Positions 45,898-57,410 of a stretch of 64,000 nucleotides of DNA are shown in pieces. Origin of the DNA: Eledone cirrhosa (Eukaryota); contig OZ024740.1 in the NCBI GenBank assembly GCA_964016885.1, forward strand, positions 319,362,001 through 319,426,000, given 5' to 3'. Position 1 is the stretch's first letter; the number at the start of each line of letters is the position of its first letter. The notes beneath the pieces are model-generated. The model searched no databases and was not told the DNA's origin. It saw only the letters and a list, made by a program, of their open reading frames with translations. Both the position numbers and the translations under genes were made by a program.

Positions 45898-46090
45898 GAT
45901 GGTGGATTGGCAGTATCGGTAGAGGGTCGGACGCCATGCTTTCTAGCATAGAGTTACGGCCCTTGCCATTCTGAGTTCAAATCCCGCCGAGGTTAACTTT
46001 GCCTTTCATCCTTAAGGGGTCGATAACATAAAGTACCAGTAATGCACTGGATAATTGCTGGCCTTGTGCCAAAAGTAGAAACAATTATTA
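45898..46090 (+). mobile_element. Full-length tRNA-derived SINE (~190 bp, Octopus-type)
   Basis: A-box-like TGGCAGTATCGG (45908-45919), B-box GTTCAAATC (45975-45983), body CTTTGCCTTTCATCCTT..GGGGTCGATAA..AAGTACCAGT and an ATTATTA tail. About 93% identical (12 differences in 186 nt, by eye) to the inverted copy at 55711-55896. Confidence 0.9.
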
Positions 46091-46166
46091 CGGGGTCAAT
46101 AAAATAAAGCACCAGTAATGAACTGGGGTAATTGCTGGCCTTGTACCAAAAGTAGAAACATTATTA
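46091..46166 (+). repeat. Second copy of the SINE 3' end in direct tandem
   Basis: GGGGTCAATAAAATAAAGCACCAGTAATGAACTGGGGTAATTGCTGGCCTTGTACCAAAAGTAGAAACATTATTA repeats 46016-46090 with several substitutions. Confidence 0.85.
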
Positions 46167-47892: not shown

Positions 47893-50800
47893 TTACAGAT
47901 ATATACTCAGAGTAGGCCCATTCACTCGGGCCATTCTTGCTTCTCTCACCCATCTTTCAACAAAATGCTGGGAAGAGAGCACTTCCCTCTCTACTCTGAT
48001 TTTCCTTTTCAAATGAAATTTGAAAAAGTCAATCAGAGCATCACCGAAGAGGTAAGTGCTCGTCTTCAGCCCTTTCAAACGTGTCCACCATACTATCTCT
48101 TTCGCCATGGCCACCAGACAGATAAAAACTGCCTGCCCTTCCTGGCTAAAGGAGGGGGGCGGGGCAATCCTCACGATGGACTCAGATGATAGCCGGATCC
48201 GTCCTAAACGCGACAGCAGGTGTTCGACATAAACCCACAAGTCAGCAATTTTCGGACACTGGACGAGTGCGTGCAGGACGGTTTCGTCGCCCTGCGCGCA
48301 TCTCGGACATGCCCGGTTGACGGCACCTCCATGCCTGTAGAGTTTATCCCGAACTGGCAAGGCTCCTCGGTAGCACTGCCAGGCCAGAGATTTCTGGAAG
48401 TTGTCCATAGGCCCCGGCCCGAAAGTTCTTCCGAAGAGATTGGCTAGTTGATTTTCGTCGACGCCTAGAGTTTCCCCAAGTACGTCGTCGCTCTTACCCT
48501 CCACTAATCCTCTATAGAACGCCGAGGTGGAGTTTCCACCGATCACATTGCCCGATTGGTCGAGGGCTGTGAGCGCCTGAAGACATTTCAGTCTCCAGGC
48601 GCTCCCTCTCGGTCTTCGCTTGACCCAGGACTGCAGCTCCGTCAAGGAAACGAGCTGGGGAAATACGCGCCTAGCAAACGGCGACCACACCTGATCACCG
48701 TCGAGGAAGAGGTGGAGATGTCGTAGCCTGAGCGCGTGTCTGCGCATCATCAGCCACGGCATGCCCAGCCCTCCACGTAGCGGGTGTTGACAACAGATGG
48801 ACCGCCTGACCATCGGAGCACGTCCCTTCCACAAAAAGCGAAAGAGCAAACGCTCCAGCGCAGTCAGGCTAGGCTTAGGACAAGGCACGACGGTCAGGCG
48901 GTAGCAGATGACAGACGCGATGTACGCGTTAGCCACCTCCGCTCGACCTTTCAGGGATAGCTTCCTCTCCGCCCATTTCTGTGTGAGAGAAGCCACCCTG
49001 CTCGTCACCTCGTCCCAGTTTTTGTCCGTCTGGAGGTCCGGACCGAACCAGACCCCTAGCAATTTAACCGGTCCGTCCAGCGTCCGACGACGCTGTTGGA
49101 CGGCATGAACCTTCCTCTCCAGGTGCCGAGCTGCAGGCCCACTGACTTTTCCTGGTTGATCATTGCTCCTGTCACCGCTTCGTATTCTCTTAGTGTAGTG
49201 CCGATCGCCTCGATGTGTTTGGCGTTCGACACCACTACGGTGACATCGTCCGCATATGCTGACACGGATCTTCCGCATCCTAGTTCGCGCAGGACTCCCC
49301 TCAACGTCTCCAGTTTGTGCAGTAATGGCTCGAGAGTCAATACGTACAAGAGGGACGAGAGGGGACATCCTTGGCGGACCGAGCGCATGATGTTGAACGG
49401 TTCCGACAGGTGACCGTTCACTCTCACCACAGAGCAGATGTCACTGTGCATGGCAGCGATCCAGCCTCTGAAGACGGGCCCAAAGCCAGCCGCCCTCAGG
49501 ACTGCCGCTAGGTAACGATGGTCGACCCTATCGAAAGCTTTCAACCTCTTTGCTAGCACCTTGGCCAAAATCTTGAACTCTGTGTTTAGCAGAGTTATGG
49601 GCCGGAAATTGTCTATGTTATCCCCCTCGTTCGGATCCTTTCTCAGCAGTGCCACCGCTCCTCGGCTCACAGAACTGGGAATTCTCCCGTTCTGTTGCCA
49701 GTTGCAGTAGAAGTCCGCCATGAGGCCTCCGAACAAGTCTGGCATCTGTACGTAAAGTTCATAGGGAAGACCATCCAAACCAGGCGATTTACCCCTTGTG
49801 CAGCCAGTCATTGCCTCCCTTACTTCAGCGGCTGTTATCGGCTTTTCGCAACACTTCGCCTCAGTGGCCGAGAGCCGCGGCAGTCCGTCGAGGTAGACAC
49901 TAAAGTCCATTCCTCTACCCGGCCCACCGCTGCCCCCGAACAGCTGAGCGAAGTGTCGCTGAAAAGCTTCACACATTTGCCCGGGATCGAGTAGCATGCG
50001 CCCGTCGTGGTCCACCAAAGACCGGATCGTGGCTTTGTTGCCACGACGCGCCTCCGCCACTCGGGCCCATTGAACGGCTTTCGTCCCCTCGTGTCTGAGA
50101 GCACGCACCCTTGCTCTGACAACGCAGCCTTCGTGCTTTGCATTGAAGAATTGGTCAAGGGCCAATTTCGCCGCAAGCACGTCGGTCGCAATGCCTTTGC
50201 TAAGCGCCTCGTCTAATTTTCTAACTAGTTCTCCCTCTGCTCTATTTTTCTCTATTGCTAAAGCCTTACTAAACCTAATCGATTCTATTCTAATCGCTCT
50301 TTTCAGAGCAAACCACCACTTGTTGTTGACGATGGCCTCCGTCAACGCCCGCTTAACTAGTTCGCTAATCCGGTCTCTGTAGGCCTTGCGCGCTGGTAAG
50401 GACGCGTTTAGCTTCCAGTAGCCGGGTCCTCGTCTATGAAGCCTATCTAAGTCAACCACACAGATCACGAATTTGTGGTCCGTGTAGCTGACTATCTTGA
50501 ATTGTGGACAGCCTATGCTAGACCTATCTATTTCCCTACAAAATACTCTATCTAGATATGATCTGGATGACCCTATGCGGTTTGTCCAAGTCCACATTGG
50601 CACATTCGGGAAATCCAATCGGTACCTGTCAGACAGTTCAAAACGCCTGAGCAGGTTGGTGAGGCTCTTGCACCCTCCACCCCTATCCGCTAATCCCACA
50701 CAGTCCCAGCGTGCATCTAAGATCCCGTTCCAGTCGCACACTAACACTAAAGAGCGGGACGTTCCAAGAAAGGTCTCCAGACGCCGGAAGAAATCAGGCC

Positions 50801-51155
50801 GCCCTGCTCCTGTCGGGGCATAGACGGCCACTAGCCTGAAAGCTTGCCCGTCTCCGCTGGTCACGTCCAGCACCACCAACTTACCCTCTGGGTCCAGGAA
50901 GATGGCCCGTATGGCGAGATCCAAACCTCTCCGAAAAAGCACAGCAACTCCTCCACCCGATCCAGGACGGCTGGGAGATGCGTACACATCGTAGCCGCCG
51001 AAGATCGGTGCGAAGGCCCGTGCTTCGGAGATTCTGGTCTCGCTGATGGCCACTACATCTATGTTTAGTGACCTGAGGTCGTTGAGCAGGTGACCCTGCT
51101 TCCATGACGACCCCAAGCCACGCGCATTTATGCTGCCTATTCTGAGTGAGGTCAT
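47893..51155 (-). pseudogene. LINE ORF2: APE endonuclease + reverse transcriptase + C-terminal Cys/His zinc finger; frameshifted, with an internal deletion
   Basis: EN motifs SINARGL, VAISETR, VYAP, xDWN, SYLDRVF and TDHK. RT motifs GKSPGLDGLPYE, NFRPITLLNTEFKIL, KAFDRVDH, VRQGCPLS and YADD (49245-49256). C-terminal CPRC...ETVLHALVQC. ORF 49056-51155 joins ORF 47893-49368 across a frameshift at ~49075. Confidence 0.93.
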
Positions 51156-51190
51156 GTTTAAAATAGAGTGGAAAAGATGGGAAAGACCAC

Positions 51191-53295
51191 TTACCGTACT
51201 TTTGGTAGAGGAGGGATGGTTTTTACATCCCTTTTCACTTGATCGTCTGGTGAAGGGACCGTTGAATCGTCCCTTCGGCTGGTCGTCGGCTCTTCTAAGA
51301 GAATGTCTGAATATACTCTTCGATTGATGGTTCCTCCTAGGTCCCTGAAATCACCAACTGCGTTGGGGAATTTCGTTTTAATGTTTGTGTATTGTTTCTG
51401 TGCTATTTTTAGCAGTCTTATGTTAGTTGGCGTTTTGATTGGTGCTGGTATTATGTAGTCCTGTTGTGAAATGTCTGTGTGTTCAATTATGTAAGTCATT
51501 AGTTTCCTGTTGTGTGTATTTATTGCCGTGCATTTGTTTTTCTGGGGGTGGGGTGTGGTTCTGCTATTTTCTTGTCGTTGTTGCTGGGTGTATGTGTTTT
51601 GTTGTTGTGTTTGCGATGTTGGTGCTTGTGGTGGTGGTGTTGAAGGTGTTGTTGGCGGTGGGGTTGTCGCCGGTGGTGATGGTGGTGCTAGTGTGGGTGG
51701 TGATGGTGTTGGTGGTGTTGCTGCTGTGGGTCTCTTTCCAGTAGACTTTACCCTTTTCTCCTTTCTTTCCTCCCTTTTCAAAGGCGACGATGCGCTGCTT
51801 CTGCGTTTGTGCCTTCTTACGACCTTTTGCCATCCCTCTCCCACCTCACACTCCATGTCTGATTCTGTGAGGTCGGGGAGGGGTACCAGCTCCACTCTTT
51901 CACTTGTTGTTGTTGGTGATGTTTGCACTGGAGTCTCTGTTGCAGCTGCATTTGGTATTGCTGTTGTTGTTAATATTTCCACTGCTGCTGCTGTTTTTGA
52001 TTTCCGTGGAGTGGGTATGGGTGCCACGGACCTATCGTTCCTGGTTGCCGCTTGTCCTGTTGCTGGTAGCCGTGGAGCCGGATTCGGAAGGAGGGGGGTT
52101 TCCTCCTTTCTCAGGGTCTTCTCGTTGCAGAAGGCCCTGAGGTGAGTCTTCGATCCACAGCGAAAGCATTTCGGGTGTTTGCCCTCAACACTTATGGGCA
52201 GTTGAGTGCCGTTATCGAAGTCTATCACATCCGGGATAGCTTTGATGCACTCCTGGTTGGTTTGGATTAGCATCTCAATGGAGGTGCCTACCCAATCTTC
52301 TCTTACTTTTTTCTGTACTTGCAGTACAGTTGTTTTGTCCTCGATTCCGACGAGGACAGACGCGGCCAGCCAAGAAGGGGCCATTCCGGGGGGGGGGGGG
52401 GCGTGGGTCAGTTTGACCCTCACAATTTTTTGCCCGCAGTAGGAGGGCACCAACACCATTTCCTCGCTCCTTAGGGTCACTACTGATTGGGCCTTTGCCT
52501 CCTGGGTGTGGCAAAAAGTACGTCTACGGTGGCATATTTTTTGCCTCGGGTGATGTGCGTTTTCCGCTGCCACACAGACCCCAAGGCTTTTTGTATTTGG
52601 GCCTCTGTGGCTCTTTCCACCCTACGGGATTTTGTACTTACTGTACGGTACGTGACCGTACAGTGCTCTTGGGTTTCGAAAAAAATTTCCGCTGCCTTGC
52701 AGATTGCTCAGTGTTCATTCTTTGTCACCATCTTCTTCGCTTCCTCTAATTCCTCATTTGTTATGAGGATTGTTTCCAAGTTTTTCGCAATACCTGCAAA
52801 TGAGATTGGTTTTTCTCTGCTGCTGCTGTTGTTGTTGTCGTCAGAGCTGCTGGTACTTTTGTTGTTGCTGCAGGTACTACGACTACTGCCTCCGCCGCTG
52901 TTGCTGTGGTTGTTGTTGGTGTTGCTGCTGCCAATGCTGTTGTTGTTTATGCTGCTGGTGATGCTGTTGCAGCTGCTACTGTTGTTTTCATTGTCACTGT
53001 TGCTGTTGTTATTACCGCTGCTACTGCTATTATTCCTGACGTCAGACGAATGAACTGGGTTTTCGTATTTCCCGCACACCTGTTTCGTCGCTATCGTCGT
53101 CGTCGTGGAGAAACCTTGCACGCTTTGCACGAGACTTTTCTTTTCTTTCGTCACTTGCGAAAGAGAAGGGAGAGAGAGAGACACATTTAAAGAAGGGAGG
53201 GAGAGAGACAATCTTCTCTCTGCTGTAGTGATGATTGAGGAAGAAGAAGACGGAATGAGTGGGTGTGACGTATGAAATTTCTTTTTCGTAGCCAT
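51191..53295 (-). pseudogene. LINE ORF1 (gag-like; low-complexity N-terminus, RRM-like region, CCHC zinc knuckle, Pro/Thr-rich tail), disrupted
   Basis: ORF 52708-53295 stops at an in-frame TGA (52708-10). Reading continues AICKAAEIFF...RGKKYATVDVLFATP, then shifts frame at ~52503 into ORF 51191-52573. The knuckle CFRCGSKTHLRAFC (CX2CX4HX4C) is at 52127-52168. Confidence 0.85.
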
Positions 53296-54744: not shown

Positions 54745-55115
54745 TTAGGACAGTAAGGGGTAGAACCGAAATTCTCCGAATTGTGAGATCACAGCTCCAA
54801 TACAAAGGGCATGTGGTCCCAGGAGTAGACTCCGATCATGATGGCTGGATAACATCCATGAACCTGTCTGGTCTCGCTTGGGGATCCAGCCGGATCAGTT
54901 GGAGACGGTTGCTTCTGACAGGACCCGTTGGAAGGAGTGTTTGAGGACTCAGCTGACCACGGCACTCTCAGGAATAAGTGGGCGAAGAAGAAGAAGAAGA
55001 AGAAGAAGAAGAAGAAGAAGAAGAAGAAGAAGAAGAAGAAGAAGAAGAAGAAGAAGAAGAAGAAGAAGAAGAAGAAGAAGAAGAAGAAGAAGAAGAAGAA
55101 GAAGAAGAAGAAGAA
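54745..55115 (+). mobile_element. RTE-clade LINE 3' fragment (internal ~70-bp deletion) with (GAA)44 tail
   Basis: Homologous to 47279-47630 (GAATTG.GAGATCACAGCT...GGTCTCGCTT.GGGATCCAGCCGGATCAGTTGGAGA.GGTTGCTTCTGACAGGACC). GAA run at 54984-55115. Confidence 0.82.
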
Positions 55116-55710
55116 TGACTGTAATTCGAGGGAAATTTGACTGCTATTTCTAGCAGTCAAACTCTACTGAGCTTAGTAGAATGGAGGCGTATCATACGAT
55201 TCATGATTACATTGCAATTGTTATGTACGCAGAACTCCACTATATACCTCATAACCCACGCCTCAATATGTGCATGTTGAAGAAGATAAGCATTTGGTGC
55301 TTAGTAATGATATATACAAGAGAAGTGACAGCATAAATATCTGTTACATACTCTGTGGTAGATAATAATAACTTAGAATATCTCCTGGTCGTGGTCATTA
55401 TTACTCAATGTTCTATTGTGTGTGTGAGAGAAGGTGTGAGAGAGAGAGATTAAGAGGGTGAGAGAGAGGGTGAGAGAGAGGGTGAGAGAGAGAGGGTGAA
55501 AGAGAGAGATTGAGAGGGTGAGAGTGAGAGAGGGTGAGAGAGAGTCTGTGGATGGGAAAGAGAAAGAAAAGACAAAGAGAGACAAAGAGAGAGAAGGTTT
55601 GGGTGAAAGGGGCGAAAGAGAGGTGTATGTGAGAGATAGTGAAAGAGAGAAAGAGAGTTAGAGAAAGTAAGAAAGTTTGTATGAAGGGGGAAGTGTTTGA
55701 AAGAGATAAT

Positions 55711-55896
55711 TGTTTCTACTATTGGCACAAGGCCAGAAATTACCCAGTACATTACTGGTACTTTATTTTATCGACCCCGTAAGGATGAAAGGCAAAGTTA
55801 ACCTCGGCGGGATTTGAACTCAGAATAGCAAGGGCCGTAACTCTATGCATCAAAGCATGGCGTCCGACCCTCTACCGATACTGCCAATCCACCGCC
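55711..55896 (-). mobile_element. Full-length tRNA-derived SINE
   Basis: Reverse complement is GGCGGTGGATTGGCAGTATCGGTAGAGGG...GAGTTCAAATCCC...GGCCTTGTGCCAATAGTAGAAACA; ~93% identical to 45898-46083. Confidence 0.92.
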
Positions 55897-55901
55897 AAAA
55901 A
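55897..55901 (-). terminator. RNA polymerase III oligo-T terminator (T5) of the tRNA trailer
   Basis: AAAAA on the + strand, 30 nt downstream of the tRNA 3' end and directly abutting the SINE 5' end. Confidence 0.6.
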
Positions 55902-55930
55902 TTTTTTAAAGATTTGTGCCAACCTCCGGA

Positions 55931-56003
55931 TGCCGAAACCCGGGATTGAACCAGGGACCTTTAGATCTTCAGTCTAACGCTCTCCCAACTGAGCTATTTC
56001 GGC
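55931..56003 (-). tRNA. tRNA-Phe-GAA: tRNA-Phe (anticodon GAA), 73 nt, intact, no encoded CCA
   Basis: Reverse complement GCCGAAATAGCTCAGTTGGGAGAGCGTTAGACTGAAGATCTAAAGGTCCCTGGTTCAATCCCGGGTTTCGGCA is the canonical metazoan tRNA-Phe, with acceptor stem GCCGAAA/TTTCGGC and anticodon loop CTGAAGA. Confidence 0.97.
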
Positions 56004-56136
56004 TGGTGTTTGAAAGAGATAATGAGATATAGAGTGAAAGGGAGTGAGAGATGAAGTAATAGAGTGAGAGAGTGAGAGAGAGAGAGAAAGAGTGGGTGAG
56101 GGAGGGAGAGAGGGAGAGAGAGAGGGAGAGAGAGAG

Positions 56137-56318: not shown

Positions 56319-57410
56319 AGCTCAGCACAAACGTAACATATTCCATCATAGGTTAACAAAGAGTAAACACAGCTCAGCACAAGCTTGACAGATTTCATCA
56401 TAGGTTAGGAAAGATAAACCAGGCTCACCACAAATGTAACAGATTTCATCATAGGTTAGGGAAGATAAACCAGGCTCACCACAAATGTAACAGGTTTCAT
56501 CATAGGTTAGGGACGATAAACCAGGTTCACCACAAATGTAACAGATTTCATCATAGGTTAGGGAAGATAAACCAGGCTCACCACAAATGTAACAGATTTC
56601 ATCATAGTTTAGGGAAGATAAACCAGGCTCACCACAAATGTAACAGATTTCATCATAGTTTAGGGAAGATAAACCAGGCTCACCGCAAATGTATCAGATT
56701 TCATCATAGGTTAGGAAAGATAAACCAGGCTAACCGCAAATGTAACAGATTTCATCATAGGTTAGGGACGATAAACCAGGCTCACCACAAATGTAACAGA
56801 TTTCATCATAGGTTAGGGAAGATAACCAGGATCACCACAAATGTAACAGATTTCATCATAGGTTAGGAAAGATAAACCAGGCTCACCACAAATGTAACAG
56901 ATTTCCTCATTGGTTAGGAAAGATAAACTATGCTCAGCTCAAATTTAACAGATTTAATCATAGGTTAGGAAAGAGTACACACAGCTCAGCTCAAATGTAA
57001 CATATTTCATCATAGGTTAGGAAAGAGTAAACACAGCTCAGCTCAAACGTAACATATTTCATCCTAAGTTAGGGAAGACTAAACACAGCTGAGCTCAAAT
57101 GTAACATATTTCATCATAGGTTAGGGAAGATAACCAGGCTCACCACAAATGCAACAGATTTCATCATAGGTTAACAAACAGTAAACGCAGCTCAGCACAA
57201 ACTTGACAGATTTCATCATAGGTTAGGGAGGATAAACCAGACTCACCACAAATGTAACAGATTTCATCATAGGTTAGGAAAGATAAACTATGCTCAGCTC
57301 AAATGCAACAGATTTAATCATAGGTTAGGAAAGAGTAAACACAACTCAGCACAAACATAACAGATTTCATCATAGGTTAAGAAAGAGTAAACACAGCTTA
57401 TCTCAAACGT
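56319..57410. repeat. Minisatellite, ~51-bp unit, ~21 copies
   Basis: Unit AAACCAGGCTCACCACAAATGTAACAGATTTCATCATAGGTTAGGGAAGAT, with a subtype GAGTAAACACAGCTCAGC(T/A)CAAA. The TCATCATAG-like core was counted 21 times. Confidence 0.95.

Follow-up and report, generated by a model that had tools for sequence, protein, structure and literature searches.

A pre-tRNA-Phe and a SINE inserted as one unit, and the recurrence of such fusions in a 3.0-Gb assembly

How does a complete tRNA-Phe gene, still carrying both ends of its primary transcript, come to lie directly in front of a SINE, with one target-site duplication around the two? The question is raised by a locus in the stretch of DNA analysed here (the window; 64,000 nucleotides, G000:C1:319362001-319426000), which is part of a 3.0-Gb assembly that we searched for related loci. 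A sequence-only reading of the window had interpreted the locus as a single retrotransposition of a pre-tRNA joined through its oligo-U end to SINE RNA, or as read-through from a tRNA-SINE source locus, and had considered that it might be the birth of a composite SINE.

Anatomy of the insertion

The features of the insertion, read mostly on the minus strand, and of a comparison copy elsewhere in the window are as follows.

55693..55710, no strand: target-site duplication, copy at the SINE tail, 18 bp, 18/18 identical to the other copy
55711..55896, minus: full-length tRNA-type SINE, 186 nt ("SINE-A", a label coined here), delimited by comparison with other copies
55897..55930, minus: pre-tRNA 3' trailer, 34 nt, with a T5 (55897-55901) at the SINE junction
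55931..56003, minus: tRNA-Phe(GAA), 73 nt, without an encoded CCA (ARAGORN and Rfam), 0 mismatches relative to the parent gene
56004..56005, minus: 5' leader of the primary transcript, 2 nt, the same 2 nt as in 6/7 full-length dispersed copies
56006..56023, no strand: target-site duplication, copy at the tRNA 5' end, 18 bp
56028..56031, minus: chance TATA-like word from the target site, at -28 (-27 at the parent gene); weak, in AT-rich DNA
45898..46083, plus: plain SINE-A copy without a tRNA, for comparison; 94.5% identity over 183 nt to the window SINE

The identical 18-mers that were said to flank a 295-bp insert were confirmed, and the 295 bp between them add up, on the minus strand, to leader, tRNA, trailer and SINE (2 + 73 + 34 + 186). 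The small RNA copy lies 5' of the retroelement in the same orientation, and the single 18-bp duplication encloses both, with none around either alone; its copy at the SINE tail opens, on the minus strand, with the ATTAT tail motif of the SINE. These two sites are the only matches to the 18-mer in the whole window when up to three mismatches are tolerated, and the 18-mer is therefore not a unit of the GA-rich tract, an objection that the sequence-only reading had raised against itself.

The description of the tRNA as flawless, without CCA and with a 34-nt trailer ending in TTTTT was borne out by ARAGORN and by Rfam, which scored it at 69.8 bits with the full RF00005 model covered. ARAGORN called this single tRNA (55931-56003, minus) in the whole window, in agreement with the claim that the SINE copy at 45898 lacks one. 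Two boundaries were refined. The claim of a retained leader stands, and its length, given as 2 nt, is now 2 or 3 nt, since base -3 of the parent gene is identical to the final base of the duplication (the match extends back over 76 nt). The T5 of the trailer lies directly against SINE position 1, with a spacer of 0, as had been described, and this placement at the start of the SINE is accurate to about 2 nt, the 5' end of SINE-A being fixed only to that extent (17 of 48 incidental copies have an extra AG in front). Word containment in public sequencing runs was 0.59-0.79 in three runs of one sample, possibly the assembled sample, and at most 0.14 in the rest.

The SINE-A element

SINE-A is short and abundant and has a head with A and B boxes (by eye), a simple-repeat tail and target-site duplications, which are the features of a tRNA-derived SINE; Rfam gave no tRNA score for the head. 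We take the A-box-like motif to be at about positions 11-22 and the B-box-like motif at 76-87, by eye and against a remembered consensus. The element is presumably cephalopod-SINE-like and the genome, as far as we can judge, that of an invertebrate.

A pattern for the SINE-A head, which also required its T-rich start, gave 476 matches in the genome, of which 30 were inspected. Clean duplications of 11-20 bp were found at 11 of the 30 loci, and ten of the 11 begin with ATTA; the priming microhomology that had been suggested for ATTAT fits this preference. In several plain copies, the duplication abuts the same head position as in the window. Among 61 full copies, the closest differs from the window SINE by 4 changes and has three subfamily changes in common with it. 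Flanking DNA retrieved for another purpose, about 39 kb in all, contained four SINE-A heads. The SINE-A tail was not matched by the 3' end of the one reverse transcriptase (RT) family sampled (30 RT loci of 150 scored). Separately, the plain copy at 45898 is followed by a partial repeat of the SINE-A 3' half (46088-46160), and the minus-oriented locus L080 contains, from about position 1540, a tandem array of the first ~36 nt of SINE-A.

Parent gene and copy number of the fusion

A check for a parent gene with the same trailer and no SINE had been proposed, and such a gene was found. The parent tRNA-Phe gene, at G000:C23:737496-737568 in a cluster of four genes (C23:737462-764242), matches the window copy in all 73 nt and in its trailer, except for runs of A7 and T8 as opposed to A6 and T5 in the window. 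Identity between the window and the parent stops upstream after 3 nt and downstream at the T-run; no SINE abuts the parent gene, and its flanks were not carried into the window insertion. A SINE remnant does lie 133 nt downstream of the parent, but with only 83% identity over 137 nt to the window SINE; therefore, it was not the donor of that SINE.

The search for the parent comprised a trailer pattern with nine matches and a DNA search in which 40 of 404 candidates were scored. The window fusion is one of the nine trailer matches and the sole one joined to SINE-A, and no second copy of it was found in the genome pattern searches, which give lower bounds for fusions. A pattern of tRNA plus SINE gave seven matches, with both parts present at the window only; this pattern is blind to 5'-truncated copies and to spacers (as at L082, below). 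Similarly, among 11 exact matches to T5 plus the SINE-A head, a tRNA lies upstream only at the window, and none was present upstream of SINE-A in the other 29 of the 30 inspected loci. A T-run ahead of the SINE-A head is usually mere target DNA.

Recurrence of fusions with tRNA-Phe

Dispersed tRNA-Phe copies were taken to be those without the upstream flank of a resident gene, on the basis of visual inspection and match length. There are 14, of which ten are joined to a repeat via the T-run.

Joined to SINE-A: window, L082
Joined to other SINE-like repeats: L002, L036, L103
Joined to a ~60-nt repeat: L006, L009, L102
Joined to the 3'-most ~55 nt of an RT-coding LINE: L100, L101
Without a repeat join: L007, L029, L037, L099

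An enclosing duplication of at least 9 bp was present in 3/10 of the fusions (18, 16 and 9 bp). The 16-bp duplication is that of L082, a tRNA-Phe joined to SINE-A; because L082 has a trailer of the C6-cluster type and a different SINE subfamily, it is independent of the window fusion. The LINE to whose 3' end the tRNA is joined in L100 and L101 belongs to a young family (L181-L210) with many near-equal RT matches and recurring 945-aa open frames, which we take to be CR1-like.

The resident tRNA-Phe genes include about 19 in 17 kb at G000:C6:85450583-85467753, one of which (L094) is internally deleted, and a tandem array at C4:117.37-117.62 Mb that shows T-arm changes. SINE copies are common near tRNA-Phe genes.

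Recurrence with other tRNAs and with U6

The assembly contains at least 19 tool-supported tRNA fusions of six isotypes, the window included, and three uncertain ones. Five of these fusions have an enclosing duplication of 9-18 bp, and the partner at the oligo-T end is SINE-A, another repeat or a LINE 3' end. This recurrence across isotypes, and also with U6, goes beyond the earlier single-locus view. All fusions are in the sense orientation, an argument against twin priming, although only sense fusions could be returned by the pattern searches.

A pattern search for other tRNAs ahead of the SINE-A head returned seven matches, four of them non-tRNA. The loci of interest from this and related searches are as follows.

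L107: full tRNA-Thr(TGT) joined to SINE-A, 12-bp duplication
L105: 5'-truncated tRNA (presumably Arg; Rfam 31.3 bits) joined to SINE-A, 12-bp duplication
L108: tRNA-like by eye only, before a SINE-A head; not called by the tools
L155: tRNA-Thr joined to a truncated SINE-A; its trailer is identical to that of L154, a gene without a SINE

The exact parent of L107 was not among the five loci inspected of 20 fetched. At L155:1311-1801, the unit of tRNA-Thr and truncated SINE-A is present three times with a 209-bp period, and target DNA overlaps the tRNA start.

The pattern for a tRNA joined to the ~60-nt repeat gave eight matches, and its reversed control gave none. Five are tRNAs by ARAGORN (His twice, Arg, Asp and Glu), one is a truncated tRNA by Rfam, and two are uncalled 3' halves, which we take to be Asn. 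No convincing duplication was seen at any of the eight, where the targets are mostly AT repeats. In all, the ~60-nt repeat is joined to oligo-T ends at nearly one point in 14 fusions (L006, L009, L102, L143, L144, L150 and L173-L180). The repeat, which starts with bases similar to those of the SINE-A head, could be a very small transcript or a defined product of cleavage. Fold z-scores of the SINE-A head and of this short repeat were weak (-2.4 and -2.1) and suggest no mechanism. An identical 11-nt leader is found in two independent tRNA-His fusions (L173:1439-1449 and the matching part of L180) and likely marks the start site.

U6 had 48 matches, of which 32 are in an array on C19 and 16 are dispersed. 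Twelve of the dispersed copies are joined to a repeat at the T-run (four to SINE-A, three to the ~60-nt repeat and five to others), and the remaining four are gene-like (two) or ambiguous (two). The array consists of at least 32 copies spaced about 1.8 kb apart (G000:C19:31780605-31840331). At L124 and L151, U6 is followed by a common repeat, and the flanks of L124 are inverted and AT-rich.

Mechanism of fusion

We favour, with a probability of roughly 65%, the interpretation that the window fusion arose by an end-to-end template jump of a LINE reverse transcriptase. The co-insertion within one duplication, the parent without a SINE, the junction at the terminator T-run, the sense orientation and the recurrence are observations; from them we infer target-primed reverse transcription, a jump as opposed to a prior ligation, and a meeting in the nucleus with an unprocessed transcript. 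The SINE-free parent and the recurring independent fusions agree with the single retrotransposition of a pre-tRNA and SINE RNA that the sequence-only reading had put forward. In such an event, the LINE enzyme would nick the ATTAT site and prime on the SINE tail, and the reverse transcriptase would copy the SINE RNA up to its 5' end and jump to the free uridine 3' end of the pre-tRNA-Phe. Copying would then proceed from the oligo-U end of the pre-tRNA to its leader, after which the site would be closed.

SINE-A is joined at its head in 8/10 fusions, with a spacer of 0-10 nt, and internally in 2/10, at positions ~77 and ~89; this share of head joins is partly biased, as L105, L107 and L108 came from a head-requiring pattern. 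The eight joins at an intact head would, indirectly, favour a jump over ligation. The R2 reverse transcriptase is described as jumping solely upon reaching the 5' end of its template (10.1101/2021.04.30.442027). Several results run counter to a jump. U6 and the pre-tRNAs share partners and join points, which makes a single ligation route economical; moreover, a duplication of at least 9 bp is seen in just three of the ten Phe fusions, and no cognate LINE was found among 30 RT loci (150 scored).

The alternative that survives best, although we consider it rather unlikely, is that the pre-tRNA was first ligated to SINE RNA in an RtcB-type reaction, as for human U6/L1, and that the joined RNA was then retrotransposed. 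Ligation would yield the same anatomy, and a jump and a ligation before reverse transcription are indistinguishable from the DNA. The U6 fusions with the same partners in this genome would suit ligation, the two internal SINE-A joins fit a broken RNA with a 5'-OH, and the near-fixed join point of the ~60-nt repeat in its 14 fusions could mark a cleavage end. Nascent pre-tRNA and SINE RNA are expected to bear a 3'-OH and a 5'-triphosphate, and neither a cyclic phosphate nor a 5'-OH is expected on primary polymerase III transcripts. RtcB ligation of human U6/L1 RNA, which occurs independently of retrotransposition, is reported to need a cyclic phosphate and a 5'-OH and to drop sharply with a 3'-OH or a 5'-triphosphate (PMC6789731). 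Ligation at the window would thus demand that the pre-tRNA ended in a cyclic phosphate and that the SINE RNA began with a 5'-OH, and the intact SINE head in 8/10 SINE-A joins also speaks against it. The choice between jump and ligation as the origin of small-RNA/retroelement chimeras is settled for human U6 only. Because pre-tRNAs should lack the cyclic phosphate, fusions of pre-tRNAs and of U6 with the same partners separate the two routes and make the question testable.

Very unlikely, by comparison, is read-through of a tRNA-Phe gene with a SINE right behind its terminator, giving one RNA and possibly the founder of a composite SINE. The SINE remnant behind the parent, the frequency of SINEs near tRNA-Phe genes and the dispersed tRNA-Phe copy L007, which does extend beyond its terminator, could be cited for such a source locus, and an unassembled or polymorphic source allele is conceivable. 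However, the remnant is 133 nt away and 83% identical over 137 nt, whereas the window SINE has no more than 4 differences from an unrelated copy; there is no second copy of the window fusion; and the at least 19 tRNA fusions and 12 U6 fusions, with varied partners, would each need a source locus of their own. The read-through origin that had been entertained earlier is accordingly not supported.

We give slightly less credence still to two separate events, in which a tRNA copy, made by retroposition or by DNA duplication, and an independent SINE insertion came to lie side by side. Dense SINE-A (4 heads in ~39 kb) makes chance neighbours, but a single duplication surrounds both parts, flank identity to the parent extends only 3 nt upstream and ceases downstream at the T-run, and the same nesting is seen again at L082, L105 and L107. 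An assembly artefact, which the low-complexity DNA at the locus might suggest, is the least probable explanation, given that the duplication is typical of the family, that the trailer can be traced to a single gene and that many analogous loci lie on different contigs.

Fate of the window tRNA copy

The window copy has an intact cloverleaf, A and B boxes and a terminator (ARAGORN and Rfam), and the insertion is probably young, as its perfect duplication indicates. The six other full-length dispersed Phe copies have 0, 2, 3, 4, 4 and 5 substitutions and both Thr fusions have 2 each, compared to 3 substitutions across 21 resident Phe genes. These counts suggest that decay is the usual fate of most dispersed copies, and the window copy would most likely be a young, one-off retro-pseudogene; we put the chance that it is a working tRNA gene at about one in four.

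The internal T5 is predicted to stop polymerase III ahead of the SINE in most rounds of transcription, and the fusion would therefore rarely be re-copied as a unit. The fusion was considered as a member of a composite SINE family and rejected, as there is one copy only and the T5 polymerase III stop (55897-55901) lies between the modules. Likewise, the birth of a mobile composite SINE, as once suspected here, is not borne out by the trailer matches, where the fusion is one of nine and the only one with SINE-A; the internal T5 and the single copy argue against a new composite SINE.

A broader proposal, which we hold to be doubtful, is that LINE reverse transcriptases of this lineage may routinely jump end to end from SINE RNA onto whole nascent pre-tRNAs, independently of RtcB, and thereby capture them, and that some of the products, the window copy included, may be live tRNA genes. 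If true, this would be a retrotransposon route that founds tRNA genes at new sites. It would also provide a caught intermediate of SINE head swapping and a genome-wide record of tRNA start and stop sites.

Relation to known chimeras

The window fusion behaves as a U6-type chimera, and it is neither a U6 chimera nor a composite SINE family. The known U6 chimeras include U6-L1, the platypus U6-L2 and U6-Mon-1, and the lizard U6-RTEX and U6-AnolisSINE2 (PMC4476161). As described there, they resemble the window fusion in having a sense polymerase III RNA joined by its oligo-U end to a retroelement, within one duplication and as single copies, often 5'-truncated; SINE partners are among them, and the survey covers vertebrates only (PMC4476161). 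Unlike these, the 5' RNA in the window is an unprocessed pre-tRNA-Phe with leader, trailer, terminator and an internal promoter. The direct joining of a T-run to retroelement sequence is shared with the RtcB U6/L1 products as reported (PMC6789731), whereas the fusions described here have a nascent pre-tRNA as the upstream RNA and, in most SINE joins, an intact SINE head.

Human tRNA/LINE-1 chimeras (n = 21) also combine a tRNA and a retroelement in one insertion with a duplication; they are mostly antisense tRNA halves ascribed to twin priming, and their partners are L1, as opposed to a SINE in the window (PMC13174262). Of the 21 rows in Supplement 3 of that paper, 2 have a sense tRNA extending to its 3' end. 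One of its rows, tRNA-Glu 1-72 of 75, sense and 11 nt before L1MC1, may have the same anatomy, though it is not described there as a precursor (PMC13174262); this row lowers the novelty of the window anatomy.

The insertions studied here also differ from retropseudogenes of tRNA precursors, in which there is no fused retroelement and priming is on the tRNA itself. Schmitz 2004 reportedly described such pre-tRNA and tailless tRNA retropseudogenes, with precursor tRNA as the template, implying an encounter in the nucleus. Pre-tRNA retropseudogenes are mentioned in PMC4476161 and PMC2912911.

Composite SINEs with a new RNA head include tRNA on a 7SL SINE, 5S on a tRNA SINE, SINEU and Bov-tA (PMC4494074, PMC5786205). 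As in the window, an RNA-gene head lies 5' of an existing element, and template switching is the proposed origin; however, as presented in these papers, composite SINEs are families amplified from a master copy, whereas the window fusion is single-copy and has an internal T5. Template switching has also been invoked for module exchange in mollusk SINEs (PMC4758252). The fusions reported here are the long-proposed intermediate by which SINEs would gain tRNA heads, here seen many times without amplification, which is probably absent since the terminator comes along. Our literature search, largely of open-access papers, returned no account of recurrent sense pre-tRNA/SINE fusions. In practice, fused copies that look perfect make tRNA gene counts too high, and the preserved leaders and trailers of the fusions reveal start and stop sites.

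Other repeats in the window

A LINE-like element at 47893-52621 on the minus strand, which we take to be L1/Tx1-like, encodes an endonuclease plus RT (763 aa) followed by a frameshifted zf-RVT part, and has a 476-aa upstream frame without a Pfam match. Tandem repeats are also present on either side of the insertion: a (GAA)44 tract at 54984-55115 and a 51-bp repeat with 20.9 copies and 88% matches at 56320-57392.
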